NCBI GenBank assembly: GCA_000993405.1 | Contig: LBWB01000009.1 | Span: 77,848 to 141,847, forward strand | Reading direction: 5' to 3' | Origin: Candidatus Woesebacteria bacterium GW2011_GWB1_39_12 | GTDB taxonomy: Bacteria > Patescibacteriota > Microgenomatia > UBA8517 | Length of the DNA stretch: 64,000 nucleotides | Shown: positions 11,614 to 63,996 of the stretch, piece after piece | How positions within the stretch are numbered: the first letter of the stretch is position 1 | Layout of the letters: each line of letters starts with the position of its first letter | Translations under genes and position numbers: made by a program | The notes under the pieces: model-generated | The model's database searches: none | What the model saw: the letters and a program-made list of their open reading frames with translations, nothing else | What the model was told of the DNA's origin: nothing

Positions 11614-12099
11614 TTAACAAATTTCATTAATCACCTCAGTGGAATATGATTTACCGTCGATCCAATCTCTAATTGCTGGAATATTATATTCAGGTTTATA
11701 TAATTTATTTTCTTCTATCAGCTTTTCTAATTCCGAAGTACTGAAATAATTAAAACCGGTTATTTCAAACCCGTCTGGCGTTACTTCACCTTCAACAATT
11801 TCTCCTCTGAAAACAAACCCTAAACCGGTTGCATCATCTCCCCGATCAGTTGGATAAATCCTAATTAGATCTAAAAGGTTTATTTCAACTCCGATTTCTT
11901 CCTTGGCTTCCCTTTTCGCAGTCATCATAGGATCTTCGTGTGGTTTCATTTTGCCGGAAGGGGGTGCCCATGCAAACTTTTCTTCCTCTATTTTCTTTTT
12001 TAAAAGGAGCAGTCTCCCTTCTCTATCCCCGATAAAAACACCGCTTGAAACACTTACTGGCAGTTTTTCTCTCGAGGATATCCTTTCTTTAGACATCAA
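11614..12099 (-). CDS. NUDIX hydrolase
   Basis: 161 aa; good Nudix box GKMKPHEDPMMTAKREAKEEIGVEI. Confidence 0.8.
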   Translation of the reverse strand: MMSKERISSREKLPVSVSSGVFIGDREGRLLLLKKKIEEEKFAWAPPSGKMKPHEDPMMTAKREAKEEIGVEINLLDLIRIYPTDRGDDATGLGFVFRGEIVEGEVTPDGFEITGFNYFSTSELEKLIEENKLYKPEYNIPAIRDWIDGKSYSTEVINEIC

Positions 12100-12460
12100 G
12101 AGTAAAATGCTTACATTCTTCTGAACCAGGATCAGTAAACATCTCTCCTAAATTTTTCCCTAATCCTTTAGCGATTCTCTGCGCAAGTTCGATGTCCATG
12201 GCGGCCATTGGACTCGAACCATCTCTCAACATATATAAGTAATAACGCATGGTATCAAAAACCTTGGCAGCTTTTTTAATTCCACCCAAATCACCAATTC
12301 CGCTTTCCAAATTTCCACGAAAATTTTCAAGTAATCGCTGAACTTCCTCTTCAGAGACCTCGTTACCAGTTGCGTCCTTGTATCTTCTCGCTTGCTCCTG
12401 TATAACCATTCCTAAACTCGGATTGGGTTTTTTAATTTCTTCTGGAGACATACTTGTCAC
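12089..12460 (-). CDS. hypothetical protein
   Basis: 123-aa ORF in a same-strand array; no family recognised. Confidence 0.4.
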   Translation of the reverse strand: MTSMSPEEIKKPNPSLGMVIQEQARRYKDATGNEVSEEEVQRLLENFRGNLESGIGDLGGIKKAAKVFDTMRYYLYMLRDGSSPMAAMDIELAQRIAKGLGKNLGEMFTDPGSEECKHFTLDV

Positions 12461-12500
12461 CTTTAAGGGTTCCTTTAAGGGTCGTGCCCTATAAGGTACG

Positions 12501-12755
12501 CTAATCGTACGGTGGCATGTGATCGATTGAGTTTTCTCTAAAATAATTATCTATTTTTTCATCTCGCATTTTTAAAGCCAGATTTATTTCATCATCAGTT
12601 AAATCCTTCCGAGCAGCTGCTAAATTTTCATTCTCTAACCATACCTCAACTGAAAAATGGTTTGTATATAAAATTCTCGCAAGTTTTTCAGCCAGACCCA
12701 CTCGAACCCCCGCCTTTTCTCCGGTTAGCAAATCGATTCTTTCTGACATATTCAT
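12501..12755 (-). CDS. hypothetical small protein
   Basis: 84-aa ORF; no family recognised. Confidence 0.35.
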   Translation of the reverse strand: MNMSERIDLLTGEKAGVRVGLAEKLARILYTNHFSVEVWLENENLAAARKDLTDDEINLALKMRDEKIDNYFRENSIDHMPPYD

Positions 12756-12829
12756 GCAAATATAACTTTATAAAAATAATAAAGCTTGACTTAATCCGTT
12801 GGGCATCTTTGACTTGTTTTTGACATTTT

Positions 12830-13927
12830 TTGACAACCTTGTTCCATTCTGGTATAAACCTAATCCTAAATAGGATTTTTGACATGAATCAGGCTTATTT
12901 TGAAACTTTGTCCAAGGATTATTTTGGTAACCTTTACCAAAAAGTTTGCAGTGCATTAACTAAAGGTGAAAATGTTTGCATTTCCGTGATACCTGGTTTT
13001 GGAGAAAAAACAATTTTTAATTTCCTGAATTTTAATTTCAAAAACGACAAACTGTTTAACGAAATTTATATTTATGATCCCGAATTGGAAAATGAAAGTA
13101 TTATCGACTATACCAAAAAATTGGAATCCCATAAAACTTCTAAAACTAAACTTCTCATTATCAGATTCTTTGAACAAATTGAAAAAAAGAGAGAGACTTT
13201 GGAAAAACTTGATAACATCAGAAGGAAAAATCCAAAGAGTCTCACCTATTTAGCCGTTTCCAATCAAGAAGCTTTTTTAAATCCCTCCTCGCACCAGGCA
13301 TTAACAACGGTGTTCTTTTCTGAACTAATTTATTTTTCTCCTTTTGATTTTGCTCACACAGAAAAAATGGTTGAGTCGTTGGCGTCTTATTATGGCTGGA
13401 AAATTGAGCCTTCCAGCTACAAAGAAATTTATAATTTGTCTGGTGGAATCCCTAGAATTATAAAATACTTAACTAAAGAGCTTTATGAATCTCGAATCCC
13501 GCTAGCCAATAAAGACAAGTTAACACTAATTCCCCAAATCGGCTTTCAACTTAGACTTATGACAAGAATTTTGATTACCTATGATCAAAAACAAATTCAA
13601 TTGATGGGATTAATCGATGAAAAATACCGATTGAAATCAGGACTTTTAAAATACTTCTTAAAAAATTTCAGAAGCGATATGATTAGCAACCTCTACCCAC
13701 AGCTAGGTGACACCGAAACAAAGATTCTGTCTTTTTTCAGCGAGAAGGAAAGTAAAATTGTAACTTTAGATAATTTAGCCCACTTAATGAAGATGTCTGA
13801 TGATGATTTTTCCTTATGGGCAATTTATAAGTTAATATCGCGCCTTAAAGTGAAAGTAAAAAATAACTTTAATATAAAAAATCTCAAAGGCCGAGGGTAT
13901 ATTCTTAGTAAATCAGTGAATCAATAA
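12830..13927 (+). CDS. hypothetical protein (possible degenerate P-loop GFGEKT)
   Basis: 365-aa ORF; unknown family. Confidence 0.45.
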   Translation: MTTLFHSGINLILNRIFDMNQAYFETLSKDYFGNLYQKVCSALTKGENVCISVIPGFGEKTIFNFLNFNFKNDKLFNEIYIYDPELENESIIDYTKKLESHKTSKTKLLIIRFFEQIEKKRETLEKLDNIRRKNPKSLTYLAVSNQEAFLNPSSHQALTTVFFSELIYFSPFDFAHTEKMVESLASYYGWKIEPSSYKEIYNLSGGIPRIIKYLTKELYESRIPLANKDKLTLIPQIGFQLRLMTRILITYDQKQIQLMGLIDEKYRLKSGLLKYFLKNFRSDMISNLYPQLGDTETKILSFFSEKESKIVTLDNLAHLMKMSDDDFSLWAIYKLISRLKVKVKNNFNIKNLKGRGYILSKSVNQ

Positions 13928-13928
13928 G

Positions 13929-14294
13929 TCATGAGTTAAATTTTGTAGATATTGATGAGAAGATCTTCACAAATTCTTTTGCTTCACGAAGTAATTCAGT
14001 TAATTCGTTTGTAAAATTTGGATTAATTTCAATTAATAATTCTAACCAGTACAAGGTTTCTTTAGACTCTTTCTTGCAAATTCTTATTTTGTGAACAAAA
14101 TCTTTGCCAGACTCCGCTTCACAAGCCTCTCTATAATTCGCACCTATAGAAGTACCCGAACGGATAGTCTGTTTTATTAATATTTCATTTGGAATTGTTT
14201 TGGGAAATCTACTTAATACTTCGATTAAATTTAATGAGAAATCTTTTGTTCTTTTTTGCATCTTCTCTCTAAATTCTGTATTTTTATATACCAT
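13929..14294 (-). CDS. four-helix-bundle protein (TIGR02436-like, formerly called 23S rRNA intervening-sequence protein)
   Basis: 121 aa; characteristic …IRSGTSIGANYREA…KDF…KIRICKKESKETLYWLELL…. Confidence 0.75.
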   Translation of the reverse strand: MVYKNTEFREKMQKRTKDFSLNLIEVLSRFPKTIPNEILIKQTIRSGTSIGANYREACEAESGKDFVHKIRICKKESKETLYWLELLIEINPNFTNELTELLREAKEFVKIFSSISTKFNS

Positions 14295-14306
14295 TGACTT
14301 ATTGAC

Positions 14307-16352
14307 TCACTGACTAACTGATTTACTATCAGATGGTTTTTTCCAAGAAGCCCATTTACAGTCGGGGTAGCGGGAACAGCCGAAGAATTTTCGACCGGTT
14401 TTTGTATTTCTTATAATGACATCCCCTTTAGCGCACTTAGGACATTTCATACCAAGCTTTTCTAAATACTTTTCGGTGTGTTTGCATTCGGGAAAGAGTG
14501 AGCAGGAAATAAATTTGCCAAAACGTCCTGTTCTTATAACCAATTCACCTTGTTTATCTCCAACCCTTCCTTCTTTCTCGCAAGTTGGGCATTTTTTTCC
14601 AAGTTTTTCAGCCTCAATTTTTACTCTTTTAGAATTTTTCTCGACGTCTACCAATTTTTTATCAAAAGGGGCATAAAATACTTTCATCATTTTTTCCCAT
14701 TCCAATTCCCCTTTTGCAATATCGTCCAATTCTTTTTCCATCTCTGCCGTAAATGAATAATCAACAATATCTTTAAAATTCGTGACCAAAAAATCATTTA
14801 CCGCAACGCCGATAGGGGTCGGTATGAACTTTCCCTCCTCTTTTTCGACATAATTTCTTACCTGTATTGTTGTTATTATCGGAGCATAAGTCGAAGGTCT
14901 ACCGATTCCGAGAGCTTCCAAAGTTTTAATCAACGACGCTTCGTTATAACGAGGGGGTGGTTGGGTAAATTTCTGTTCTGATAACACTTTTAACAGATCC
15001 AATAGTTCATCTTTTTCGACCAAAGGCAACTCCGGCTCTTCTTCTTTGGTTAATGGTATTATTTTTCTCCATCCGTCAAACTTCAGAACTTGCCCGGAAG
15101 CTCGTAAAAAATACACCTCCGAGGTGTGAATGTTTTTCACCTCGGAGGTGATACTGGCTTCAATGTCAATTATTGTTTCGTCAAAAACACAAGCTGCCAT
15201 CTGACAGGCAACAAAGCGCTTCCAAATAAGTTGATAAAGCTTCTCGAAATCATTACTAAATTTTCCATCTGTAATTTGTAATTTGTCATTTGTAATTTCA
15301 ACATTAGTCGGCCTGATTGCCTCATGGGCTTCTTGTGCAAGTTTGGAAGTTCTTTTAAAAAACCGTGGTTTCTCGGGCAAATAGTTTGCACCATATGTCT
15401 TGCCTATATATTCCCGGGCTTTTTCAACCGCAGTCGCAGCCAAATTCACCGAATCGGTCCTGTGATAAGTAATTAAGCCCTCTTCATAAAGCCTTTGGGC
15501 AATACTCATTGTTCTTTTGGCCGACCAGCCAAAAAGTCTGGCTCCTGCTTGAGTCATGGTTGATGTTGTAAAAGGGGGATACGGAGACTTAACTACTTCG
15601 CGTTTTCGTACATCGAAAACTTTATAACCGGATTTTTCAAGATCGGAAACTACAGATTTTGCATTTTCTTCATTTTTGATTTCAGCTTTTTTGTCATTTA
15701 TTTTAATCAACTGAACGGTAAATTCGCCATCTTTTACCTCTTGCCTTTTACCTTTTACCTGACAAAAGATTTCCCAATATTCATCCGATTTAAAAGCCTC
15801 TATTTCTCTTTCTCTCTCTACAATCAAGCGTACCGTAACCGATTGTACTCGTCCGGCAGACAAACCTCGACGAATTTTTTTCCATAAAAGCGGCGAAAGC
15901 TTATAACCCACAAGTCTATCCAAAACGCGCCTTGCAATCTGGGCGTCGACTAAATTCTTGTCTATATCCCTAGGATGAGCAATTGCTTCCTCTACCGCCT
16001 CTTTTGTAATCTCATGAAAAACGATCCTTCGGGGGTGATCGCTGATATGTGATCGGTGATCGGTGAGAATTTCTTTAACGTGTTGAGCTATAGCTTCTCC
16101 TTCACGGTCAGGGTCCGTTGCTAAAAATATTTGCTTTGCTTTCTTCCCCTCCTCCTCAATTTTTTTGATCGTATCTTTCTTCTTTTCGACCAATAAATAC
16201 TTTGGTTCAAAATTCTTTTCTATGTCAACCGCCAACTCACTTTTAGGAAGATCCTTAATGTGTCCCGTTGTGGCCTCCACAGAATAATCGTTCCCCAAAA
16301 AACGGGACAAAGTTTTAGCCTTTGTTGGTGATTCGACAATAATTAAATTCAT
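14307..16352 (-). CDS. topA: DNA topoisomerase I
   Basis: 681 aa; TOPRIM N-terminus MNLIIVESPTKAKTL; C-terminal C4 zinc ribbons; contains two in-frame word-repeat insertions. Confidence 0.95.
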   Translation of the reverse strand: MNLIIVESPTKAKTLSRFLGNDYSVEATTGHIKDLPKSELAVDIEKNFEPKYLLVEKKKDTIKKIEEEGKKAKQIFLATDPDREGEAIAQHVKEILTDHRSHISDHPRRIVFHEITKEAVEEAIAHPRDIDKNLVDAQIARRVLDRLVGYKLSPLLWKKIRRGLSAGRVQSVTVRLIVEREREIEAFKSDEYWEIFCQVKGKRQEVKDGEFTVQLIKINDKKAEIKNEENAKSVVSDLEKSGYKVFDVRKREVVKSPYPPFTTSTMTQAGARLFGWSAKRTMSIAQRLYEEGLITYHRTDSVNLAATAVEKAREYIGKTYGANYLPEKPRFFKRTSKLAQEAHEAIRPTNVEITNDKLQITDGKFSNDFEKLYQLIWKRFVACQMAACVFDETIIDIEASITSEVKNIHTSEVYFLRASGQVLKFDGWRKIIPLTKEEEPELPLVEKDELLDLLKVLSEQKFTQPPPRYNEASLIKTLEALGIGRPSTYAPIITTIQVRNYVEKEEGKFIPTPIGVAVNDFLVTNFKDIVDYSFTAEMEKELDDIAKGELEWEKMMKVFYAPFDKKLVDVEKNSKRVKIEAEKLGKKCPTCEKEGRVGDKQGELVIRTGRFGKFISCSLFPECKHTEKYLEKLGMKCPKCAKGDVIIRNTKTGRKFFGCSRYPDCKWASWKKPSDSKSVSQ

Positions 16353-44142: not shown

Positions 44143-44213
44143 AGGGTCGTGGTGAAATGGTATCACGGCGGTCTCCAAAACCGCTTTTCCGGGTTCGAAT
44201 CCTGGCGACCCTG
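44143..44213 (+). tRNA. tRNA-Trp (anticodon CCA)
   Basis: agggtcg/cgaccct acceptor, gtga-aatggta-tcac D-arm, gcggt-ctccaaa-accgc anticodon arm, ccggg-ttcgaat-cctgg T-arm, discriminator g; CCA not encoded. Confidence 0.85.
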
Positions 44214-44395
44214 CAAAACAAAAGTGACTCTCTTGTGGAGTCTATTTTTGTTTTGTGGCCAGGATGAGAAATTTACACTGAGCGAGTGAAACGAGTCGAA
44301 TGTGAATCCTGGCGACCCTGCCAATTCTTTGAAATTCCAAGTGTGTCAAGCTATTCCACTCCAGGTGTGGTTTAAACAAGTGATATTATTAATTT

Positions 44396-50738: not shown

Positions 50739-52685
50739 ATGACTCACGAATTAAATTCCGGTCAACGAACACGTTGGTGGATACAAAATCCACGTCGGAC
50801 TTCGGCCGAACCTCAAATACAACCCCCCGTTTATGAAAAACCTTTAACTATCAGAGAATGGTTAAATCAAGAACCTGATGGAAAAGTGGCTCAATCTTAT
50901 AAACTTGCAGAAAAAATCCATGAAGGTCAGGTAAGATTCTCCGGCGAACCCTATATATCTCATCCCGAAGCTGTTACTGACATAATAAACACCGAATTCT
51001 ATAATGGCGCTCTCCCTGACGTGGATTTAATCTGTGCCGCTCTTCTTCACGATACTCTTGAGGATACGAATGACGAACAAAAACTTCTTATTTACGAGAA
51101 AATAAAAAATGATTTTGGGGAAGGTGTAGCCTACTTGGTAGAAAGTGTATCTCAATTCAGATCAGATGGAAGTGAACAATCAGACACCGAATATCTTCAA
51201 AAACAGGCTGCTCATGGAATTCCGGATCCCCGCGTATTTGTTCTCAAACTGGCCGATAGACTTCACAATATGCGTACCCTCCAATTCGTACCCGAGGAAA
51301 AACAAATTCCTAAAGCAAAGGAAACCCACATTTATGCAGGTCTGGCCGAAAGACTCGGAATGTGGGCAGTAAAAACAGAACTTGAAGATCTAGCTTTCAA
51401 ATATGAATCACCCGATCTTTATCAATCAATCAAAGAAGAGGTGGATTCCGATCCACGCCTTACTGCTGATTTTATCAGTAAAGTTGAAAACAGCTTAAAT
51501 CAGGTATTAAGAAATAACGAGGGCACGAAAGGTTCAATAAGTGTAAGAAAAAATGGCTTATGGGCATTATATGATAAGAGAATCAGGTTGGCGCAGGCAG
51601 GAAAAGGAAGATTGGGTACTTTTTCGCATATAAATGACTTAGTTAGCTTTCGCATAGTATGTGATACTGTTAATTCGAATAATCTTTTAGAACTGTATAG
51701 CATACTCGGCGCCATCCATAACCATCCAAAATTTAATGAGCCTTTAGATGAAACCAGATTGGACGAATTTTTAGCCAAACCTAAAGGTAACAAATACTCA
51801 GCACTCCAAACAACAATCGACTATCCCGAAGGATCATTTGAAATAGCAATAACAACGAAAGAAAGAGAAGAATTTAACAATTGGGGAATAATGTATTTAT
51901 TAAGGCGTGGTCAATTACAGGAAGCCACTCCCCTATATGAATTGAAAATAGTATTTGACGAAGAAGGTAAGGCTATATTTCTAAATAAAGATGCAACCGG
52001 AGTGGATTTTGTTTACGCAAAAAACCCCTGGCTGGGTGCTCAAGCAATAAGTCTAATCGTAAATGAAGTCCCTACAAAAATCGGACAATTCGTTCCAAAT
52101 GCATCAAGTATTAAAGTAGTAGCATCAGAAGATATACGAAGAGCTCCACCTGCACATTTTCTGGAACATTGTAGCCCTGAAACTCAAAAAATTATTGAAT
52201 CTCAATACGCACTTTTGGGTAGAGATTTTGACGTCGTCAGAGGTAGCGAATTACTTGAACCTATACTTTCCCGTATAGGTCTTCTCGTTGTTTCTGACTG
52301 GCCTCCTCTTGAAAGAATACTCCTTACTAAATTCGACGCACAAGATCTCCATGATTTATACCTCAAAATTGCAAGAACAGGTGAACATCTGTTAAATGAA
52401 ATAAGTCAAGTATTTCAGGAAGAAGGAATCAATAAAGAAGCTCTGAGTTTAACCACGATCAGGCTTCGGGGAAAAAACAGCCCTCACGTCCTAAGAGATG
52501 TGTCAAATCTCATTGACGATCTTAAGGTAGACACAAGACACATCTTGACAAGTAAACCGATAGCCTCAGAAGAAGGAGATTACGAGCTGAGAATTGTAAT
52601 AAATAATCCTTCTCAAGAAATCCTTAACACGCTTAATAAGAAACTAGGTAACGACCAGAGGTTTGATCAGGTAACTATAGTCTGA
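50739..52685 (+). CDS. RelA/SpoT-homologue (RSH) (p)ppGpp synthetase/hydrolase
   Basis: 648 aa; HD motif …ICAALLHDTLEDT…, …ADRLHNMRTL…; synthetase-domain motif …DEFLAKPKGNKYSALQTTI… (cf. DYIAxPKxNGYxSLHT). Confidence 0.8.
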   Translation: MTHELNSGQRTRWWIQNPRRTSAEPQIQPPVYEKPLTIREWLNQEPDGKVAQSYKLAEKIHEGQVRFSGEPYISHPEAVTDIINTEFYNGALPDVDLICAALLHDTLEDTNDEQKLLIYEKIKNDFGEGVAYLVESVSQFRSDGSEQSDTEYLQKQAAHGIPDPRVFVLKLADRLHNMRTLQFVPEEKQIPKAKETHIYAGLAERLGMWAVKTELEDLAFKYESPDLYQSIKEEVDSDPRLTADFISKVENSLNQVLRNNEGTKGSISVRKNGLWALYDKRIRLAQAGKGRLGTFSHINDLVSFRIVCDTVNSNNLLELYSILGAIHNHPKFNEPLDETRLDEFLAKPKGNKYSALQTTIDYPEGSFEIAITTKEREEFNNWGIMYLLRRGQLQEATPLYELKIVFDEEGKAIFLNKDATGVDFVYAKNPWLGAQAISLIVNEVPTKIGQFVPNASSIKVVASEDIRRAPPAHFLEHCSPETQKIIESQYALLGRDFDVVRGSELLEPILSRIGLLVVSDWPPLERILLTKFDAQDLHDLYLKIARTGEHLLNEISQVFQEEGINKEALSLTTIRLRGKNSPHVLRDVSNLIDDLKVDTRHILTSKPIASEEGDYELRIVINNPSQEILNTLNKKLGNDQRFDQVTIV

Positions 52686-53084: not shown

Positions 53085-53564
53085 ATGACTACAACCGCAA
53101 GGTTAGGTGGACTGCTTTTCGCGGTCCTGTTACTCGCGGCGCTCGCTTTGATGATGAGCCCCGCAAACCCAGCTGCACTGCAGCTGGAAATTAGCATACC
53201 CGGTGGCGCTGCGCCGGAACTGTCTGCTGCAGAGCAGGCGATGAAAAACGCCTTGGAACTTCTCCCAGGCGCCCAAATCAGCGTTCCTGCGCTCTTTTCG
53301 CCAAACGGTGGCTCAGTAACCTTGAACATGAACGGCATGTCGCTTCAGACAAACTGGAGCCCTGTGGACGAAGGGTGTGATTATCACGGGTTCATTAATG
53401 GAAAGAGAATCCCCCTTCTTCACTCGGAGGATCCTTGCGATCCTGCTGATTTCCTCGCGTGGCTGGTTGCCTACGCTTACAAGATCACCGAGGTGATCGG
53501 TAAGGAAAGGGGCGATTCCATAGTTCGTGCAGTTGTCGAGCTGATTCAGCCGTTTGTCCACTAA
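53085..53564 (+). CDS. secreted hypothetical protein encoded by a conspicuously GC-rich, foreign-looking segment
   Basis: 159 aa with signal peptide (…LGGLLFAVLLLAALALMMSPANPAA…). The coding DNA is visibly far more GC-rich than every other gene in the window. An RBS-like aggaga lies upstream. Overlapping minus-strand ORFs are probably GC artefacts. Confidence 0.5.
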   Translation: MTTTARLGGLLFAVLLLAALALMMSPANPAALQLEISIPGGAAPELSAAEQAMKNALELLPGAQISVPALFSPNGGSVTLNMNGMSLQTNWSPVDEGCDYHGFINGKRIPLLHSEDPCDPADFLAWLVAYAYKITEVIGKERGDSIVRAVVELIQPFVH

Positions 53565-53833: not shown

Positions 53834-54568
53834 ATGAAAAAATTACCGAACTTCTCCTATGAAAAACGACTTTGGAAAAAAGGCTATAAATTTGTCGCCG
53901 GCTGCGACGAGGTGGGAAGAGGATGTTTTGCAGGACCTGTAGTAGCAGCATGCAACGTATTCATGCCGCAAAATCCAAAAAACAAATTCCAAATTCCAAA
54001 AAATATAAAAATTGATGACTCGAAGAAGTTATCAGAAACCCAAAGAAATATAGCAGCAAAGTGGATTAAAGATAATTGTTTAACCTGGGGAATCGGCATA
54101 GGAAGAGTATCGGAAATAAATAGGTTAGGAATGACAAAAGCAACATCTTCGGCTTTTCGTCGGGCTATTACTAACGCTAATAAAAGGATGGCTTCCCGAG
54201 TAGATTACTTACTCATAGATGCATTTTATATACCATACACAAGGGGCTTACGGATGCCACTAAAAACTGAGAAACTAAAGAATAAAAGAATCAAGGAACT
54301 TAAATATTCAAAATTATCAGGACGACAGTTGGCAATAATAAACGGTGATGAAAAATCTCTTTCAATAGCCGCTGCCTCAATAATTGCCAAGGTTTATAGA
54401 GACAAGTTAATGAAAAACTTAAGTAAAAGACCCAAATTTAAGAAATATGGGTGGGACAAAAACAAAGGTTATGGAACTCGGCAGCATCGAGAAGCAATTT
54501 TAAAATACGGCTCAACAAAATATCACAGAAAAAAATTTGTAGAAACTTATCTTTCCAAAAATAATTAA
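53834..54568 (+). CDS. rnhB: ribonuclease HII
   Basis: 244 aa; …AGCDEVGRGCFAGPVV… catalytic DEVGRG motif; contains an in-frame ccaaattccaaa word repeat. Confidence 0.85.
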   Translation: MKKLPNFSYEKRLWKKGYKFVAGCDEVGRGCFAGPVVAACNVFMPQNPKNKFQIPKNIKIDDSKKLSETQRNIAAKWIKDNCLTWGIGIGRVSEINRLGMTKATSSAFRRAITNANKRMASRVDYLLIDAFYIPYTRGLRMPLKTEKLKNKRIKELKYSKLSGRQLAIINGDEKSLSIAAASIIAKVYRDKLMKNLSKRPKFKKYGWDKNKGYGTRQHREAILKYGSTKYHRKKFVETYLSKNN

Positions 54569-54762
54569 TAGTTTCTTTTTTTCTCCAGTTCTATTTGGAA
54601 CTTGACTCGGGCTTTTTGTTCCTTTCTTTTTTCAGATGGAGGCTTAAAGCGAGCGCGTTCCCTGGCTTCCTGCAGAAGACCTGAGTCCAAAACCTCTTTC
54701 TTGAATCTGGCGATCAACCTGTCTTCGGATTCTCCCCTTTTTTTGACCACGACGACCATCAA
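54565..54762 (-). CDS. rpsU: 30S ribosomal protein S21
   Basis: 65 aa; …LIARFKKEVLDSGLLQEARERARFKPPSEKRK… S21 pattern. Confidence 0.7.
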   Translation of the reverse strand: MMVVVVKKRGESEDRLIARFKKEVLDSGLLQEARERARFKPPSEKRKEQKARVKFQIELEKKRNY

Positions 54763-55879: not shown

Positions 55880-56308
55880 ATGGCATCTAAAAAGATAAAA
55901 ACCATTGTTAAAGTCAACTTGAAAGCAGGAGAGGCAACTCCGGCTCCACCCTTGGGTCCGGTATTGGGACAGCACGGCGTCGCCATAATGGAATTCGTAA
56001 AAGCCTACAACGAGCGTACTACCGAAATGAAGGGTGAAACAGTGCCTGCAGTAATAACGATTTACGAGGACAGGAGTTTTGATTTTGAGATAAAGAAAGC
56101 ACCCGTTGCCGATATGATCAAAAAGGCATTGGGCATTGAAAAAGGCTCAGGAACAACTCCGAGAGAAATGGTTGGAATGCTTACTAAAGCACAAGTTGAG
56201 AAAATCGCTAAGGAAAAAATGGATGATTTTAATACCCAGGATCTGGAAGAAGCAAGAAAGATTGTGTCAGGAACAGCAAGAAGTATGGGAGTAAAAGTGG
56301 AAGATTAA
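55880..56308 (+). CDS. rplK: 50S ribosomal protein L11
   Basis: 142 aa; …KAGEATPAPPLGPVLGQHGVAIMEFVKAYN… typical L11. Confidence 0.95.
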   Translation: MASKKIKTIVKVNLKAGEATPAPPLGPVLGQHGVAIMEFVKAYNERTTEMKGETVPAVITIYEDRSFDFEIKKAPVADMIKKALGIEKGSGTTPREMVGMLTKAQVEKIAKEKMDDFNTQDLEEARKIVSGTARSMGVKVED

Positions 56309-56312
56309 TTTT

Positions 56313-57128
56313 ATGGGAAAAACAAAAACAGCATTCGTCGGTGAGGTTGAAGAAAAAAAACTAAGCGGCGAAGAAAAATACAAAGAAAGACAAAAGAAAA
56401 AAGAATCCGTTCAAAAAGAGGAAAAAGTTCATGTTGCCGGATTAAAGGGGGGGCAGAGGATAAAAGTTGTGGAGGCAGAAACATTACCCACAGAGGTCGT
56501 AGAGGAATCCACAGAAGCCGGAGAAAAGAAAAAAGTCATCAAGAAAAAAATTCGTGGTAAAAATTATCTTCAAGTTAAATCAAAAATAGACAGAAACAAG
56601 TTCTATTCAGTCAACGATGCACTAAAACTGGTTAAAGAAACATCTTACTCAAAATTCAACGGAACTTTTGAAATGCATATTGTAGTCAAAAAGGTAGGCT
56701 TATCGGAAAATGTCACCCTCCCCCATTTCGAAGGAAAAGCAAAAAGAGTTGAAGTTGCCGATGATAAAACCATTGAAAAACTCAAAAAAGGCAAAATTGA
56801 TTTTGATGTACTTTTGGCAACCCCCGACATGATGCCGAAATTGGTTCCATTTGCCAAAATTCTGGGTCCTAAAGGACTCATGCCAAATCCAAAGAATGGA
56901 ACTATTATCAAAGGTAACAAAGACGTTGAGAAATTTTCAGGGAACTCTTTGACAATAAAAACCGAAAAAGACGCGCCGGTTATTCATACAGTCGTAGGCA
57001 AAGTCAGCCAGCCGGAAAAAGAGTTGGAAGAAAATATTGAAAGCGTCTTAAATGCAGTCAATAAAAAACAGATTGTCAAAGCCTATCTCAAATCCACAAT
57101 GTCGCCATCTGTAAAATTATCTGTCTAA
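56313..57128 (+). CDS. rplA: 50S ribosomal protein L1 (with ~50-aa Lys/Glu-rich N-terminal extension)
   Basis: 271 aa; L1 core …FDVLLATPDMMPKLVPFAKILGPKGLMPNPK…. Confidence 0.9.
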   Translation: MGKTKTAFVGEVEEKKLSGEEKYKERQKKKESVQKEEKVHVAGLKGGQRIKVVEAETLPTEVVEESTEAGEKKKVIKKKIRGKNYLQVKSKIDRNKFYSVNDALKLVKETSYSKFNGTFEMHIVVKKVGLSENVTLPHFEGKAKRVEVADDKTIEKLKKGKIDFDVLLATPDMMPKLVPFAKILGPKGLMPNPKNGTIIKGNKDVEKFSGNSLTIKTEKDAPVIHTVVGKVSQPEKELEENIESVLNAVNKKQIVKAYLKSTMSPSVKLSV

Positions 57129-57139
57129 AACCTAGAATG

Positions 57140-57175
57140 CTCGCCAGCCGAAGTCTTAACGTAGGCGGGAGCCTA
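57140..57175 (+). repeat. GC-rich hairpin element (empty copy of the GCCCGCCGAAG…GGCGGG family)
   Basis: gctcgccagccgaagtcttaacgtaggcgggagcc; the same arms flank tRNA-Thr(GGU) at 43088-43195. Confidence 0.55.
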
Positions 57176-57204
57176 TTTGTAAAAGCATAAGTATAATTCT
57201 TTAC

Positions 57205-58266
57205 TTAAATAGTCCTGTTCCCCGATATTGCAGAAGTAATGTCTTCAACTATTCCATTCTTACATTCCCCACATAAATTTTTTCCTGACATACAAGCTTG
57301 TAATACCTGCTCTAAAGTAGCATCTTTTAAGACTAGGTCTGCAATTTTAAAAAAAGAACATTTATGAGGATTTCCTCCAAGTTTTTCTTGTTCATTCACC
57401 GAACGACCTCCGCTTACTGCTTTTATTAATTTCTTCCGATTTACTTCAGGATCGTCTCCGAGAAAAACAGCCGTATTAGGAACTTCAATAGACATTCTTT
57501 GTCCATTATTGCTTTTTAAACTTGGCAAAAGTAAGCGGTAGGAAAAGCTGGGCGGACTGACATTCAGTCGTCTTGCAACTTTATTTGTAATCTCAGCATG
57601 AGTAACCTGCTTAACATCCGCTGTCACTAGAGTTGGTTTTTCTGGCGAAATTAGCTGAGGCAATAAGAAAGAGGCAGTGAGTGTACCCGGTGTATTTAGC
57701 TGGTTCATGGTAATTTCACCGGCATTCCACCCATACAATCTCAAGAGTTCTGCAATTTTTATTTTATTATCTACAACGGATTTAAGAGATCTTATTTCTG
57801 GTGAATCGACATCCGAATACACATATTGAGGAAAAGCTAAATCCTCTTTCAATACACCCCTTATAACAGTCTTCCAAAATTCTCCTACTTTTGCTCTTGC
57901 CTGATCAGTACTCAAAAAAGTATTTGCTTCATGACCGGATACTACAAAAAAGGGTTCAGCTCCGTGTTTTATATGCCAAGCGATCTCTCGTCCTAAAGTT
58001 ATATGACCCGCATGAAACCGAGAAGGTTTGAAACCAACCAAAAGATTATAACTTTGACCTCGGTCTATTTGATCGAATATCTGATCAGGATCCTTCATTG
58101 CCCAAACACCCGTCTTTGCTAAAGATCTAGCTAAATTTGTACGTAGTCCTTCATATTCTGATAGTGGTGTTAATCCAAATTGTTGAACTTTTTTTCGACT
58201 TTCCTCGCCTAAATCGCCCACCCAGGACATTCTAAGTTCTGACAATAAGCTTGCATTCTCACTCAT
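57205..58266 (-). CDS. class I aminoacyl-tRNA synthetase-like protein (TrpRS-like) with C-terminal Cx21Cx6Cx2C motif
   Basis: 353 aa; HIGH-type motif FKPSRFHAGHITLG; no clear KMSKS; the C-terminal Cys spacing resembles the [4Fe-4S] motif described for Thermotoga-type TrpRS. Confidence 0.5.
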   Translation of the reverse strand: MSENASLLSELRMSWVGDLGEESRKKVQQFGLTPLSEYEGLRTNLARSLAKTGVWAMKDPDQIFDQIDRGQSYNLLVGFKPSRFHAGHITLGREIAWHIKHGAEPFFVVSGHEANTFLSTDQARAKVGEFWKTVIRGVLKEDLAFPQYVYSDVDSPEIRSLKSVVDNKIKIAELLRLYGWNAGEITMNQLNTPGTLTASFLLPQLISPEKPTLVTADVKQVTHAEITNKVARRLNVSPPSFSYRLLLPSLKSNNGQRMSIEVPNTAVFLGDDPEVNRKKLIKAVSGGRSVNEQEKLGGNPHKCSFFKIADLVLKDATLEQVLQACMSGKNLCGECKNGIVEDITSAISGNRTI

Positions 58267-58278
58267 TTTTTCACCTTT

Positions 58279-59097
58279 CTAATTTATAATTGACTGATTT
58301 TTCAAGAAAGTTAATGACTCCATGTATTTTGGTTCGCTGAGATACTTATTGCATTTTTCAAAATATAAATCCGGAAAATCAAATCGGTCATGACTATAAG
58401 CTCCGAAAGCCCAAAACCGGGAAGTATACTCAACAGCTTTTCTATTTATATTTTTCAGTAATCCTCCAGTAAATCTATATTTGTTTCTGCTTATTTTTAT
58501 TACCAAATTTAATTTAATTAAAGTATTTGGCATCGTTTCTCCCATAATTCTCCAAATATCCTGAAATTTGGGTGAAACATAGTGCTTGAAAAAATACGAA
58601 TGATAATGCGGGTACAAAAAGGAGTAAGACTGAAACACACTGGCCACAATATTATTCCTATTTAAATTTTGAATATTCTTATTTTTACTAAGATACACCA
58701 TAAAGGGGGTTATTAATTCTAAAGAGACTGAAAGTATTTCCTTATCATCCATAAGATTTCCTATCGAAATAAACGGGTTTAAAGTCTTACCGCAGAAATA
58801 CCCACCATATTTTCCTTCTCGACCATCTTTTACGAACTCTTTCTTGGGTACGATATAAAGAGTTACAGGATGGTTTTTATAAGAGGCGCTAATTCTTCTG
58901 GGATTACCGTTTGAATTAGTAATCAACATAAAATCCAAATCACTGCCCTCTTTTAACTGATTTGTGATCAGACTGCCATAGACTATCCAGACATGATCTT
59001 TTTTATAACTAGATTCTAGATTTAGCCTCTCAGATAGATACTTGGTTGACTCGACAGCTAGCTTATAATTTTTCTCTGAAACAATAGATTTATACAT
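58279..59097 (-). CDS. nucleotidyltransferase-domain protein (Pol-beta superfamily)
   Basis: 272 aa; …VYGSLITNQLKEGSDLDFMLI… matches the GSx(n)DxD minimal nucleotidyltransferase motif. Confidence 0.6.
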   Translation of the reverse strand: MYKSIVSEKNYKLAVESTKYLSERLNLESSYKKDHVWIVYGSLITNQLKEGSDLDFMLITNSNGNPRRISASYKNHPVTLYIVPKKEFVKDGREGKYGGYFCGKTLNPFISIGNLMDDKEILSVSLELITPFMVYLSKNKNIQNLNRNNIVASVFQSYSFLYPHYHSYFFKHYVSPKFQDIWRIMGETMPNTLIKLNLVIKISRNKYRFTGGLLKNINRKAVEYTSRFWAFGAYSHDRFDFPDLYFEKCNKYLSEPKYMESLTFLKNQSIIN

Positions 59098-60202
59098 ATG
59101 TATGGTAGGACTTATCTATATATTGGAACGGTTGTCCTGCATTTCCAAAAGTTGTCTTTACTGCTTCGGCAATAATTGCGGGCATTAGTTTTTGCTTATT
59201 CCAATAATCTAAGAATCGTATTTCACCAAAATACAATAACCCCAAATATTTATTTATATCCTGAATATCCTTCCAGGTGCCGTTCATTCTTGTAAAGACT
59301 TCTACTGCGACTTTTTGATAATTTTGTATTTCATTATTAAAACCGTAATTATGATTGATGATTATTCTGCCAAACTCAATTTTCATTTCACCTAAAGTTT
59401 CTGCAGAAAAATATCTATAAGACCACCAACCATACATGTGAGAAAGCATTTGCCTCCAATCATTATGAAAACCAGACCACTCCCAATCTACCAAATACCA
59501 GCCGTTACCGCTTACTACAACATTCGATGGCTGAGGGTCACCATGACAAAGTACACCAAATGAAGGAGCATCTACTCTTTCCAAACGCGAAAAACACTCC
59601 TCTAAAGATGGATAAATGACCCCATTAATTTTTAAAGGTAAATTAAAATAATTTTCTAATTTTATATTATCTGAAATTTTTATTTCTTTTACCCCTTTGG
59701 TAATTCTTTCCAATCTTGGTTTATAAGGCCGAGGAGACTCCTCTGAGAGATAGTTATGTTTAGTTTGCTCCCAAACATCAACTAATGAAAAAACCACATC
59801 ACTCCATATAGACAAACATTTAGAGCATGTTTTAGGTTTACTACAAATCAATCGATGTAATGTTTCTGTGCCATATGCATTACTAATCATAATTTCATAA
59901 TTTCCTACTTTTTGAACATTTAAAACTTCTGGTAAATTTTTGTAGTACTTCGATAAAGTCAAATATCTCGCATACTCATCGAATAACGACAGTCTCGGAT
60001 CTTTTACGCATTTTACTGCATAAAATACTTCTTTCTGGGTGTCACCATAAATATAGACCTTTGAATTAGACGATCCTGAATGTACAGATAATAACTGCAA
60101 TCTGTCCGAACTAGTAAGCTTTGTAACTAACTTATGGGCAATTTTTTGAGACATATTATCAAATAAAAATAAAAACCTCCTTTTGGTAGAGAGGTTGTTC
60201 AA
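59090..60202 (-). CDS. phosphotransferase of the APH/choline-kinase (protein-kinase-like) family
   Basis: 370 aa; …LCHGDPQPSNVVV…YLVDWEWSGF… (Brenner HGDxxxxN motif and DWE motif). Confidence 0.7.
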   Translation of the reverse strand: MNNLSTKRRFLFLFDNMSQKIAHKLVTKLTSSDRLQLLSVHSGSSNSKVYIYGDTQKEVFYAVKCVKDPRLSLFDEYARYLTLSKYYKNLPEVLNVQKVGNYEIMISNAYGTETLHRLICSKPKTCSKCLSIWSDVVFSLVDVWEQTKHNYLSEESPRPYKPRLERITKGVKEIKISDNIKLENYFNLPLKINGVIYPSLEECFSRLERVDAPSFGVLCHGDPQPSNVVVSGNGWYLVDWEWSGFHNDWRQMLSHMYGWWSYRYFSAETLGEMKIEFGRIIINHNYGFNNEIQNYQKVAVEVFTRMNGTWKDIQDINKYLGLLYFGEIRFLDYWNKQKLMPAIIAEAVKTTFGNAGQPFQYIDKSYHTYV

Positions 60203-60379
60203 AACTTTATTCTTTAAACGGAATTAAGGAAACAACCTCCTATGTAAGGAGGACAAAGTTTAAGTAAATAAGATTTTTCAAAATAATCACGGTTATACTT
60301 ATTAGTTTAATATACTATAAGATATCTGTCAATCGTAAAATGATATAAAAAATCACCACCTGCTTGTCTAAAAATCTAA

Positions 60380-60556
60380 TTTAGACAATCCGAATTGTCA
60401 ACAAGTGAACTAACTCTTGACCAAACATTCAGATACACATATAATAATCCTGTCCTAAGATAGCGCGCAGTCAAAAGACATAAGACACGCCGAGGCAAAC
60501 AAAGTTTAAGACGCCTCGTGCGTCTTTTTTTTATCGAAGATACGCGAAGTATTGAA
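60380..60556 (+). promoter_or_regulatory. rplJ (L10) leader with attenuator-like hairpin plus T8 tract
   Basis: The hairpin gacgc-ctcgt-gcgtc (about 60510-60524) is followed by tttttttt, immediately upstream of the L10 start. Alternative pairing partners gacacgccgagg lie just upstream. Confidence 0.5.
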
Positions 60557-61075
60557 ATGAGAAAATCTGAAAAACCATTTTTTGTATCAAATTTAACCGA
60601 GGAGCTCAAAGGCGCGAGCTCTGTTATTCTTGTCGACTACTCTGGTTTAACAGTCAAGTTGCAGCAGGATCTAAAAAAGCGCCTGAAAGAGATCGGTTCG
60701 AATATGTTTGTCGCTAAAAACAGACTTTTCAAGTTAGCCGGAAATGAAGCCAAAATGCCTGAAGAAGTCCTGACAGATACCGCTTTAACCGGTCCTACTG
60801 CTTTTATTATTTCCGAAGAAGATCCTATTGCCCCCCTGCAAGTTATTTATAAATTTGCAAAAGAACACGAAATTCCGACTTTCAAGGCAGGAATTGTTGA
60901 CGGTAAATTTCAAGATAAAGAAGCTCTCAAAATATTAGCTCAACTTCCTTCAAAAGAAGTTCTTTACGGACAATTAATGGGAACCATCGCGAGTCCGATG
61001 TACGGATTGGTATCAACTTTGCAAGGAAACTTACAGAAATTAGTATATATATTGAAAACAAAATCACAAGCATAA
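60557..61075 (+). CDS. rplJ: 50S ribosomal protein L10
   Basis: L10 pattern …VILVDYSGLTVKLQQDLKKRL…. The track ORF starts at 60518 inside the leader hairpin; the internal Met MRKSEKPFF (60557) is the more plausible start. Confidence 0.85.
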   Translation: MRKSEKPFFVSNLTEELKGASSVILVDYSGLTVKLQQDLKKRLKEIGSNMFVAKNRLFKLAGNEAKMPEEVLTDTALTGPTAFIISEEDPIAPLQVIYKFAKEHEIPTFKAGIVDGKFQDKEALKILAQLPSKEVLYGQLMGTIASPMYGLVSTLQGNLQKLVYILKTKSQA

Positions 61076-61156: not shown

Positions 61157-61630
61157 GTGGTGATAATTATGACAGATGATATTAAAAAAGAAGAAGTAAA
61201 AACTGAAAAAAAGGATACAAAAGTATCTAAAGGTGTTGAAGCTCTCGTTAACGAAATCGCAAAACTTTCAGTTATGGAACTGTCCGAACTTGTAAATGCT
61301 TTACAGGATAAGCTCGGAGTCAGTGCGGCTGCTCCCATGATGGCCGCGTCGAACGTGGCTGCGCAGACAGCAGGGCAATCCGCAGAAGGCACAAGCGAAG
61401 CTCAATCTGCTTCCGGCGGAACCCAAACCGTAACAATGACTAATGCTGGAGGAAATAAAATAGCCGTAATTAAGGCTTTGAGAGAAATCAACCAAAATTT
61501 GGGACTAAAAGAGGCAAAAGATATGACAGAACAGGTTCCTGCAGAAATTCTAAAAGACGCTAAAGCTGAAGACGTTAAATCCGCTGCAGACAAACTCAAA
61601 GCAGCCGGCGCCACGGTAGAGCTGAAATAA
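61157..61630 (+). CDS. rplL: 50S ribosomal protein L7/L12
   Basis: 157 aa; Ala-rich hinge and C-terminal domain …KIAVIKALREINQNLGLKEAKDMTEQVP…. Confidence 0.9.
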   Translation: MVIIMTDDIKKEEVKTEKKDTKVSKGVEALVNEIAKLSVMELSELVNALQDKLGVSAAAPMMAASNVAAQTAGQSAEGTSEAQSASGGTQTVTMTNAGGNKIAVIKALREINQNLGLKEAKDMTEQVPAEILKDAKAEDVKSAADKLKAAGATVELK

Positions 61631-61671: not shown

Positions 61672-62274
61672 TCACTTAAATATTATCAGTGTGAAGTCTT
61701 TCATACGGTAGTGGTGGCGAAAAATAACTTTTGGGGATAAACTCAAGCAGAATTTTAAAATTTCTAAAGAGTTTGCATACCATACTTTGTATTTTTCTTT
61801 ATTTGTAGGCTGCGGATAGCCTCCTGCCATATTAAATACAACCGCCTCTTTCGCATGATCGAACATAATTTTTATTGCCTTTTCCCTGCAGTCCATAGGA
61901 TATTCAACATTTGAATTTAGAGTTCCCGAAGTAAGAACTATGTCAAACTTTTCTTGCAGAGGTTTGCCAAAATAATCTCCAATAATAAACTCGTGTTCGG
62001 GATGTTTTTTGCGAGCTATTTCTATAAATTCAGAAACCAAATCTATTCCTGTATATTCAAAATGTTTCGCTTTTGCAGAAATAAAGGGAATAATATCCCC
62101 AAAACCGCATCCGATATCAAGAACGCTTTTCCCTTCAATATCAACGTCTGCAACTAGATTTAGGAAGCGAACTTCTTGGGCAACCCTTGATCTAAACCTC
62201 AGAGCTTTAGGACCAACACCAAATTTTTTATAAGAGGCAAGATATCTTTCCTTAATTTTTGATGTTTCGCTCAT
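61672..62274 (-). CDS. class I SAM-dependent methyltransferase
   Basis: 200 aa; motif I …SVLDIGCGFGDI…. Confidence 0.7.
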   Translation of the reverse strand: MSETSKIKERYLASYKKFGVGPKALRFRSRVAQEVRFLNLVADVDIEGKSVLDIGCGFGDIIPFISAKAKHFEYTGIDLVSEFIEIARKKHPEHEFIIGDYFGKPLQEKFDIVLTSGTLNSNVEYPMDCREKAIKIMFDHAKEAVVFNMAGGYPQPTNKEKYKVWYANSLEILKFCLSLSPKVIFRHHYRMKDFTLIIFK

Positions 62275-63154
62275 ATAGAGTTTCGAAATATTTTATAATC
62301 TCTTCTGCAGCATTAATCCCGGTATACTTTTCGAATCCCGTAAACTGGGGACCCGGGTTAATCTCCAAAATATACGGTTTACCCGTATTTTTATTCACCA
62401 TTATGTCTACTCCTGCTATCTCTGTTGCGGTAATTTCACTCAGTTTCTCGGCAATATTTCTTATTTCAGGATACTTTTCTAGATCAAATTTCTCGCCTCT
62501 CCCACCAAGGCTAATATTACTTCTGAATTCATCTTTCTTCGTCGGAACTCGCTTCATGGCTCCGATTGCTTTATACCCAACGGTAAAAACTCTGATATCG
62601 CCGTCGTTTGGAATAAATTCACGAATAACAAACGAGGGTGATTTTTGTTTATTTTCCTCGATCACTTTCTCTACTTCCTCCGGAGAATCTACCTTGAAAA
62701 CACCCCTTCCCTGTCTTCCTTCTGAAATTTTAACAATTAAAGGAAATTCAAAATTATCTATTACCGACCTTACCGACTTTGAGTCAAAAACCAGTGCAGA
62801 TTTTGGGAAAGGAAGCAGATTTTCTGTTTGTTTCAAATAATCGGAGGCTGGGGTTAAGTAATAATTGTAAGAAGAATCAATTACCTTTTTATTAACAATT
62901 ATCGTACGCATCTGCCTATTTAAAAAATTGACGGCCGTATACCACTCCCAGCGTCTTTTCCCCACCGCCCAAAGGTAGATAAGATCGTATTTAAGTTCTT
63001 TACCGCGAAGGGTGGGTTTGAAAATATCGGGCGTTGAATAGATTGTAAGCTCTGACGTATAACATCCTTCAACGGTATGACCACGCTTCTTGCCTTCCTC
63101 TTTAATTCTTTTAAGTTGAGGATTTCTAACAAGACCGACGATTAGAATTCTCAT
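62252..63154 (-). CDS. ATP-grasp ligase of the RimK family
   Basis: 300 aa; …SEGRQGRGVFKV…, …RVFTVGYKAIGAMKR…, …GVDIMVNKNTGKPYILEINPGPQF…. Confidence 0.75.
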   Translation of the reverse strand: MRILIVGLVRNPQLKRIKEEGKKRGHTVEGCYTSELTIYSTPDIFKPTLRGKELKYDLIYLWAVGKRRWEWYTAVNFLNRQMRTIIVNKKVIDSSYNYYLTPASDYLKQTENLLPFPKSALVFDSKSVRSVIDNFEFPLIVKISEGRQGRGVFKVDSPEEVEKVIEENKQKSPSFVIREFIPNDGDIRVFTVGYKAIGAMKRVPTKKDEFRSNISLGGRGEKFDLEKYPEIRNIAEKLSEITATEIAGVDIMVNKNTGKPYILEINPGPQFTGFEKYTGINAAEEIIKYFETLYERNIKN

Positions 63155-63228
63155 GGTTAAATAGTCAAATAGTTATATGGTTTTAATGCTTTTTTAACAA
63201 TTCAGCTATTTAGCCATATAACCATTTT

Positions 63229-63996
63229 TTATATTGCATTTTTTATAGCATATTCGACAAATACTTTTGTGATATTTTCTCCGGTTGCGGCCTCCATTCC
63301 GATCATCCCCGCCGTATGATTTACTTCCAAAATATATCTCTTACTGTCTTTACTAATAAGCAAATCTACCCCGCCCACGCTTATGTCCACTGCGTCTAAA
63401 GCCGCCTTGGCAAGCTTTTCGTCTTCTTGATCAAGGTCAAATTTCTCAACGCTTCCGCCTAGAGAAAAATTGGCTCTGAATTCTCCCTCGCCGGGGATTC
63501 TTCTCATAGAGTATATTTTATCTCCGATAATTAAGACTCTAAGATCATATTTATAGTCAATGAATTGTTGTAAAAGGTAACTTTTAGCCTCGCCGCCATT
63601 TTCCTTTATCCTTGAAATAAATTCACCAAGCTCCTCTTCATTATCAAATTTATAAACTCCTGCGCCTTTACCTGTTCTTGTCAATTTAACAACGACGGGA
63701 TATCCGATTTCTTGGGCAGCTTCCGCGAACTTATCAAAATCGTGAAGATGATACGAATCTGGTACGGGTACGCCTGCATCTGCCAATTTTATGAGATCAG
63801 AAATTTTATTGATAGAATATTTATGGACTAATAAATTGTTGTCAAAAACCTTTACGCCTTTTTCTCTCAAACCGACAATATGAGAAGAAATGCCTTTGAT
63901 ATTATTGAAAATTCCCCGCAAAATAAGCACGTCAGGTAAATCATCCGTAGGTTCAATAAATAATTTGCCGTTCCTTATAGCATATTCAAACTTCAA
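63229..63996 (-). CDS. second ATP-grasp (RimK-like) ligase, possibly N-terminally truncated by the window edge
   Basis: 255 aa; …GKGAGVYKF…, …RANFSLGGSVEKFDLD…, …GVDLLISKDSKRYILEVNHTAGM…. Confidence 0.7.
   Translation of the reverse strand: MKFEYAIRNGKLFIEPTDDLPDVLILRGIFNNIKGISSHIVGLREKGVKVFDNNLLVHKYSINKISDLIKLADAGVPVPDSYHLHDFDKFAEAAQEIGYPVVVKLTRTGKGAGVYKFDNEEELGEFISRIKENGGEAKSYLLQQFIDYKYDLRVLIIGDKIYSMRRIPGEGEFRANFSLGGSVEKFDLDQEDEKLAKAALDAVDISVGGVDLLISKDSKRYILEVNHTAGMIGMEAATGENITKVFVEYAIKNAI

Follow-up and report, generated by a model that had tools for sequence, protein, structure and literature searches.

A conserved, mobile three-gene module between rplA and rplJ of a Candidatus Woesebacteria bacterium, with a possible role in tryptophan-linked small-molecule chemistry

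In the genome of Candidatus Woesebacteria bacterium GW2011_GWB1_39_12, three minus-strand genes occupy the gap between the plus-strand ribosomal protein genes rplA and rplJ, and the question that this locus raises is what such an antisense block is for. The window in which we analysed it is a stretch of 64,000 nucleotides of contig LBWB01000009.1 (positions 77,848 to 141,847), and coordinates given below without a locus name are positions in this window. We call the three genes K, N and W2:

59090..60202, minus strand: K, 370 amino acids, a small-molecule kinase of the APH/choline-kinase superfamily (eukaryotic-protein-kinase-like), first gene of the operon
58279..59097, minus strand: N, 272 amino acids, a nucleotidyltransferase of the Pol-beta superfamily whose C-terminal helical domain is family-specific, middle gene of the operon
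57205..58266, minus strand: W2, 353 amino acids, a paralogue of archaeal/eukaryotic-type tryptophanyl-tRNA synthetase (TrpRS), last gene of the operon

The answer that we put forward, tentatively and at somewhat less than even confidence, is that K, N and W2 form the core of a conserved mobile module serving a small-molecule pathway linked to tryptophan.

The block itself is real, as the first-pass annotation had claimed. Its open reading frames are confirmed, and the order rplA-[W2-N-K]-rplJ is present on nine contigs from independent assemblies, those of GW2011_GWB1_39_12 and of near-identical metagenome-assembled genomes, which rejects misassembly. Because the start of N overlaps the stop of K by 8 nucleotides and only 12 nucleotides separate N from W2, we read the three genes as one operon. 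The foreign look ascribed to the block is likewise borne out; K and N have a GC content of 30-35%, compared with about 40% for the whole window. Neither direct nor inverted repeats flank the K-N-W2 block as insertion scars.

Chance juxtaposition of the three genes can be rejected because 27 non-redundant loci carry the trio. This set, drawn from reference genomes, metagenomes and contig look-ups, consists of 26 groups of K at 95% nucleotide identity plus one further locus, L050; the metagenome scan was seeded with the kinase alignment. Homologues of the three proteins are rare (about 25 clusters for W2, 29 clusters for K and 75 representatives for N), and the hosts of the module are diverse Candidate Phyla Radiation (CPR) bacteria together with cultured Micromonosporaceae. 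K, N and W2 are complete in all 27 loci and keep a fixed order, permuted in three high-GC loci. The idea that relatives might share the arrangement seen here is therefore half right: the K-N-W2 order is shared, but none of the other loci uses the site between rplA and rplJ, which is incidental.

A fourth gene belongs to the cluster nearly everywhere. In 24 of the 25 loci with readable flanks it is a bacterial-type trpS that passes TIGR00233, and the window group is the only informative locus without one; tblastn searches of the window with three cassette TrpS proteins found no such gene, and none lies in the few kilobases past the window's right-hand end. The full form of the module is trpS-K-N-W2, and the copy in the window landed between rplA and rplJ without its trpS. 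The linked genes represent at least five lineages with 32-45% mutual identity. Their usual position is upstream of K, but in L009 trpS stands downstream of W2, and the L013-type cassette carries another trpS lineage even though, in K, N and W2, it is as close to L001 as L003 is. The several lineages, the shifted position and the swap together indicate that the linkage is selected for rather than passively inherited. The L001-type gene, the majority type in CPR loci, encodes a protein 63% identical to TrpRS II of Deinococcus radiodurans over 325 amino acids, and six linked trpS products from five lineages, including that of the Micromonosporaceae (the L001 gene lies at 7044-8060), contain no tryptophan residue. 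Rfam, at its gathering thresholds, recognised neither a T-box nor any other riboswitch upstream of the cassettes.

The module also moves. Between L001, a Berkelbacteria locus, and L006, the isoleucyl-tRNA synthetases (IleRS) are 39% identical over their C-terminal 425 amino acids, whereas for the products of the cassette identity reaches 83% in trpS, 62% in K, 63% in N and 65% in W2. Because cassette identity far exceeds that of IleRS, we conclude that the whole module, trpS included, was transferred horizontally. The GC content of its hosts ranges from 35 to 69%, and the flanking genes are different at every locus; those of L003 and L006 include prophage-like repressors, restriction-modification genes and GmrSD genes. 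Viral contigs and plasmids yielded no copy of the module.

The strongest functional clue comes from extended versions of the module in two phyla, whose gene fusion and recurrent tailoring-type neighbours point to small-molecule chemistry around an amino acid. Three loci of 68-69% GC belong to Micromonosporaceae (Melissospora conviva, several Micromonospora, Verrucosispora and Salinispora). Here the operon reads HAD phosphatase, N, a 659-residue fusion of W2 with a HisC-like aminotransferase, trpS, K and an F420/LLM oxidoreductase; it adjoins an XRE-TPR regulator, and a second version gains a TylF-type methyltransferase. By hhalign, the fusion protein belongs to the W2 family in its N-terminal half (probability 100%, E = 2e-38), which keeps both the HIGH motif and the four cysteines discussed below. 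In extended CPR loci the homologous aminotransferase stands alone and shares 31-33% identity with its fused counterpart; such loci also encode a TylF methyltransferase (47% identity to that of the actinomycetes), a GFO/IDH/MocA dehydrogenase, best matched by inositol 2-dehydrogenase, and a conserved protein of 227 amino acids. Thus W2 is co-encoded with, or fused to, tailoring enzymes across taxa; the window itself has none of these genes. Separately, the region after the L001 cassette (11284-14639) holds a GCS2/amidoligase-like gene, an AstE/AspA-family gene, a tRNA-Trp(CCA) gene and a group-II pyridoxal-dependent decarboxylase gene, with a FeeM/acetyltransferase-like gene and a ThiF-like gene upstream of the cassette; these flanking genes may be further amino-acid-modifying context.

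The three core proteins had been assigned to an aminoacyl-tRNA synthetase (aaRS)-like family, to Pol-beta nucleotidyltransferases and to APH-type kinases. At the level of superfamily these assignments hold, given the family-wide matches, the motifs and the structural models of W2 and K. W2 matches PF00579 above its cut-off (1.4e-10) but falls below every TrpRS equivalog model: it scores 144.1 bits against an archaeal-type TrpRS model with a cut-off of 451 (cut-offs in the PRK12285 models run from 320 to 891) and 103.3 bits against TIGR00233, with a cut-off of 176.75. Its relatives are annotated by NCBI as 'hypothetical protein'. All family-invariant residues are retained in W2, as are the ATP and amino-acid motifs: the HIGH motif is intact as F84-H85-A-G87-H88 (family form FHxGH), and the KMSKS position reads R257-M258-S259-I-E (family RMSxK/R, compared with KMSxS in archaeal/eukaryotic TrpRS). 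Cys303, Cys325, Cys332 and Cys335 are invariant in the family, in a spacing of C-x21-C-x6-C-x2-C that is also found in aligned TrpRS sequences of Thermotoga maritima and archaea.

The AlphaFold model of W2 (pLDDT 92.8) matches the TrpRSs of Aeropyrum pernix, human and yeast along the whole chain. A Foldseek search of the PDB with this model returned TrpRS structures as its top 41 matches, the best being A. pernix 3a04 (1.3e-19, TM 0.76), and the first TyrRS appeared only at 4.7e-11, so the fold is nearer to TrpRS than to TyrRS. The C-terminus is about 20-40 amino acids shorter than in archaeal-type homologues, with most of the anticodon-binding domain present. In human TrpRS, Y159 and Q194 are contacts of the indole N-H; the aligned positions are hydrophobic in W2 and in the genuine TrpRS of A. 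pernix alike, and for this reason we see no sign that tryptophan is excluded from W2.

K, a 100% match to the NCBI entry 'hypothetical protein UT24_C0009G0154' of Ca. Woesebacteria GW2011_GWB1_39_12, has intact catalytic motifs. In an alignment of 29 sequences these comprise a glycine-rich loop (G43, S44, S45), the AVK lysine (Lys64), Glu76, the catalytic loop H220-G-D222-x4-N227 and D239 of a DWEW motif, and the motif residues are invariant or nearly so. The window's K falls short of PF01636 (APH; 20.9 bits against a gathering threshold of 23.2), but among the 29 relatives 25 match APH and 12 match Choline_kinase; against the APH(3') model NF033068 K scores 24.1 bits, with a cut-off of 205. 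The top folds for its model (pLDDT 87.9) are APH(3'), APH(4) and ethanolamine kinase, at a weak TM of 0.4-0.54 (normalised by query length) and 11-16% identity. Tryptophan makes up 2.4-3.1% of K, compared with a window baseline of 1.4%, and several tryptophan positions are invariant. Distant homologues of K adjoin an IMPase-type phosphatase and, in one locus, also a sugar-1-phosphate nucleotidyltransferase. A sister family, 25-28% identical to K, is paired with an inositol-monophosphatase-family gene in L047 (1724-4768) and L048 (5965-7982), the former with an RmlA-type sugar-1-phosphate nucleotidyltransferase in addition; these loci look like a separate kinase/nucleotidyltransferase/phosphatase salvage module of low-GC uncultured bacteria.

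N carries the Pol-beta motif G41-S42...D53-x-D55 (YGS...SDLDF), and D91, K104 and H236 are also conserved. Matches to PF01909 (NTP_transf_2) were obtained for 10 of 10 relatives, the best at 3e-6, although the window's N alone reaches only 15.6 bits, where 21 are required. A phmmer search of 1.84 billion representatives with N found 75 relatives, most full-length ones being about 250-300 amino acids long; the best nucleotidyltransferase match among PDB sequences is marginal (E = 0.15). This size, and the layout of an N-terminal nucleotidyltransferase domain followed by a helical C-terminal domain, suggest an enzyme of the small-molecule nucleotidyltransferase type.

The likeness of K and N to small-molecule (antibiotic-type) modifying enzymes, already proposed in the first-pass annotation, thus stands in architecture and fold: in build they appear to resemble antibiotic, sugar and choline kinases and antibiotic nucleotidyltransferases. 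APH/ChoK-fold kinases with an adjacent nucleotidyltransferase are familiar as salvage or activation pairs, such as AmgK/MurU and LicA/LicC, and K beside N shares this arrangement. N differs from the MurU and LicC partners in having a Pol-beta fold, which usually transfers a nucleoside monophosphate to a hydroxyl, and is not a GlmU/RmlA-type maker of NDP-sugars.

From the conserved gene content, the motifs and folds, the trpS linkage, the horizontal transfer and the W2-aminotransferase fusion, we infer catalytic roles, a substrate and a purpose for trpS as follows. W2 would use ATP to activate tryptophan, or a close analogue supplied by the aminotransferase, as an adenylate, and would then ligate the activated amino acid to an acceptor. 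K would phosphorylate, and N nucleotidylate, hydroxyl groups on the acceptor or the product, and any HAD, dehydrogenase, methyltransferase or LLM enzyme that a locus encodes would tailor the product. The linked, tryptophan-free trpS product could be an auxiliary or insensitive TrpRS that sustains translation if the product or an intermediate disturbs TrpRS; alternatively, it could supply Trp-tRNA.

Gene clusters centred on an aaRS paralogue, with a co-located aaRS, are known already. Like AcmF, SbzA and MshC, W2 is an aaRS paralogue co-encoded with tailoring enzymes. The direct ligation proposed for W2 would resemble that by MshC, the CysRS-like Cys:GlcN-Ins ligase. The nearest precedents, AcmF (AlaRS-like, ascamycin) and SbzA (IleRS-like, SB-203208), are aaRS-like biosynthetic enzymes that join an amino acid to an acceptor other than a protein, and both use aminoacyl-tRNA (PMC12945691). 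Products of such aaRS-like biosynthetic enzymes can be aaRS inhibitors (PMC12945691), and producers of aaRS inhibitors carry protective second aaRS copies (PMC12945691, PMC9437257). The literature that we searched contained no TrpRS-derived biosynthetic example with a kinase and nucleotidyltransferase pair, and full-text searches returned no description of a module of trpS, kinase, nucleotidyltransferase and TrpRS paralogue; the nearest published case is TrpRS-A, discussed below.

Several points weigh against a Trp-linked small-molecule pathway. Most CPR loci, the window among them, consist of the core genes only, with no aminotransferase, dehydrogenase or methyltransferase, and no exporter was recognised in any locus; because tailoring genes and an exporter were not seen there, a biosynthetic cluster is not evident in the core-only loci. 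For the immunity logic a trpS is needed, and the window has none. The roles given to K and N would rest on analogy at 12-16% identity in structural alignments, and W2 keeps the full TrpRS architecture in its predicted structure, so that charging of a tRNA is fully possible. Furthermore, CPR bacteria have limited biosynthetic capacity.

The main alternative, which we consider rather unlikely, is that the module is an auxiliary translation system. W2 would be a genuine second TrpRS for stress, tryptophan limitation or inhibition of the main enzyme, a role that has been proposed for TrpRS-A and TrpRS II. K and N would regulate or modify TrpRS, tRNATrp or its charged form Trp-tRNATrp; TrpS might be phosphorylated in the manner of HipT, or the 3' end of the tRNA nucleotidylated. 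Consistent with it, W2 is homologous to TrpRS over its full length and has the HIGH, RMSxx and four-cysteine motifs, its presumed indole-contact positions are as hydrophobic as those of a genuine TrpRS, trpS is linked nearly everywhere, and a tRNATrp(CCA) gene lies less than 2 kb from W2 in L001 and L014. There is also a precedent: CPR bacteria are known to hold TrpRS-A, an extra archaeal-type TrpRS that is rare, laterally transferred and sometimes found beside the bacterial-type TrpRS, and whose function is unknown (PMC5370408). One sub-clade of TrpRS-A shares the four-cysteine motif with W2, but the system differs in its partner, ORF1, which has no tryptophan residues, and in its dedicated A73 tRNATrp, and kinases or nucleotidyltransferases are not mentioned (PMC5370408). 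Our module, in contrast, has two partner enzymes, the Trp-rich K and N, and is found in Actinobacteria too. Its loci yielded no dedicated tRNA and no archaeal-type A73 partner; all three nearby tRNATrp genes have the bacterial G73, which, together with the scores of W2 below every TrpRS equivalog cut-off, argues against an auxiliary translation enzyme. A role in translation accounts poorly for an aminotransferase fused to W2 and for the recurrent methyltransferase, dehydrogenase, LLM and HAD genes. K and N look less like HipA- or MenT-type toxins than like enzymes of small-molecule metabolism, and PADLOC gave no significant match. The isoelectric points of the module products do not discriminate for nucleic-acid binding.

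TrpRS II of D. radiodurans is a second, stress-induced auxiliary TrpRS (PMC9437257). The likeness to this nitric oxide synthase (NOS)-binding enzyme (PDB 2a4m/1yi8) concerns the linked trpS, a gene missing from the window, and not W2. No Deinococcus relative of K, N or W2 was among the named matches, and we saw no gene for NOS in any of the loci.

A further alternative, which we judge distinctly unlikely, is a resistance cassette in which W2 is a drug-insensitive TrpRS while K and N inactivate a TrpRS inhibitor or a drug of the aminoglycoside or nucleoside type. The fold, size and motifs of K and N do recall APH and ANT-type enzymes, the distribution of the mobile module is patchy, and second aaRS copies are an established route to resistance (PMC9437257). 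However, K and N score 24 and 13 bits, far below what all the curated APH/ANT resistance models demand (205-340), and the module was found neither on plasmids nor in viral contigs. A cassette of this kind would moreover demand four redundant layers, two TrpRSs and two drug modifiers, and the aminotransferase fusion and tailoring genes are not resistance functions. The first-pass annotation had taken W2 for a classic self-resistance TrpRS, and in that form the claim finds no support. The known indolmycin-resistance copies of TrpRS are of the bacterial type; W2 is unlike them in being archaeal-type, in falling below the equivalog cut-offs and in being fused, in actinomycetes, to a HisC-like aminotransferase amid tailoring-type enzymes. 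TrpRS1 of Streptomyces coelicolor and its counterpart in S. griseus, from indolmycin producers or resistant strains, are second TrpRSs that protect translation, and the known resistance TrpRSs are second enzyme copies that still function as TrpRS (reviewed in PMC9437257). Its fusion context makes W2 a more natural biosynthetic enzyme or ligase than a spare target, and if the module has a protective TrpRS, the linked bacterial-type trpS, which the window lacks, is a better candidate for it.

We think it very unlikely that the module carries out a tRNA-dependent conversion like SerRS/PSTK/SepSecS or SepRS/SepCysS, in which an aaRS loads a precursor on a tRNA, K phosphorylates it there and a pyridoxal-phosphate (PLP) enzyme converts it. 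We give equally little credence to the companion idea that W2, as a second, archaeal-type TrpRS, makes or remodels an aminoacyl-tRNA together with K, N and any fused PLP domain; Trp-tRNA would then be reached by a new route, or a non-canonical aminoacyl-tRNA derived from Trp would occur in nature, and the system would have spread between CPR bacteria and actinomycetes by horizontal transfer. It is true that a kinase co-occurs with two genes of the aaRS type and that an aaRS paralogue is fused to a fold-type-I PLP domain, and tRNATrp is nearby in two loci; yet most loci, and the window, have no PLP enzyme, K is not PSTK-like, the loci hold no dedicated tRNA, and N is left without a role. Least credible of all is a module for toxin-antitoxin action or anti-phage defence with TrpRS or tRNATrp as its target, which would suit a rare mobile module and the prophage-like, restriction-modification and GmrSD surroundings of L003 and L006, but which is at odds with the metabolic accessory genes and the fusion, with flanks that vary from locus to locus, with the absence of the module from viral contigs, and with PADLOC, which had no match for K, W2 or the L001 copies and only a generic nucleotidyltransferase match for N (E >= 6e-4).

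What bounds the block in the window is a separate matter, and the elements in question are these:

60203..60517: divergent intergenic region of 315 bp between K and rplJ, with promoter-like hexamers in both directions
60436..60540, plus strand: L10-leader-like element upstream of rplJ (Rfam RF00557), outside the module and given for context only
57140..57171: weak hairpin where rplA and W2 converge, a possible shared terminator

The first-pass annotation had placed the block between a GC hairpin element on the rplA side and the L10 leader on the rplJ side. The hairpin exists, but it is unique, with a single copy in the window at up to 3 mismatches, and its folding energy is unremarkable, with z = -1.07 for the plus strand and -0.13 for the minus strand. 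As for the L10 leader, its match stays below the gathering threshold (33.2 bits where 44 are required, E = 0.0077). Two promoter-like sites on the minus strand face K, TTGACA-17-TAGATT (60401->60373) and TTGACA-17-TAAACT (60332->60304), and one on the plus strand faces rplJ, TTGACC-17-TATAAT (60417-60445; 11 of 12 consensus positions); these are consensus matches only, in a region (60203-60517) no richer in them than shuffled sequence. Within the L10-leader-like region a terminator-like hairpin at 60508-60526 overlaps the GTG at 60518, which makes the ATG at 60558 the more plausible start of rplJ.

The plus-strand ribosomal neighbourhood consists of secE, nusG, rplK (55880-56308) and rplA (56313-57128) and, beyond the block, of rplJ (60518 or 60558 to 61075) and rplL (61157-61630). 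The rplA product, at 271 amino acids, has a Lys/Glu-rich N-terminal extension of about 80-90 residues, and Pfam Ribosomal_L1 covers residues 152-265 only. Downstream of rplL, on the minus strand (61672-63996), lie a class-I methyltransferase gene and two RimK-like ATP-grasp genes, and past the window's end (L055 2064-5818) there follow a third RimK-like gene and an ATPgrasp_ST gene; a peptide-ligase-type cluster beside the L10/L12 genes is unusual. On the other side, a tRNA-Trp(CCA) gene (44143-44214, plus strand), which is often directly upstream of secE-nusG, stands about 10.7 kb before them (to 54891). The gap holds a RelA/SpoT-like gene (50739-52685), an RNase HII gene (53834-54568) and an S21-like open reading frame (54565-54762, minus strand), and it may be what the first-pass annotation counted as a first insertion. 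Between the RelA/SpoT-like and RNase HII genes, a 159-residue open reading frame (53085-53564, plus strand) lies in an island of 54% GC in a window of about 40%; it has no Pfam family on record and is kept on the organism's other contigs.

If the K-N-W2 module does serve a Trp-linked small-molecule pathway, then the ultra-small CPR bacteria and cultured Micromonospora, Salinispora and Verrucosispora would share a compact, mobile and undescribed pathway of tryptophan activation, built on a recruited archaeal-type TrpRS and bringing its own TrpRS II-like synthetase. W2 would be a TrpRS-derived addition to the short list of aaRS paralogues that act as small-molecule ligases. The module could also indicate a new TrpRS-directed metabolite, and the TrpRS II class would gain a genomic context beyond NOS. 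Because the module takes the form of a six-gene operon in culturable actinomycetes, the question is open to direct testing at the bench.

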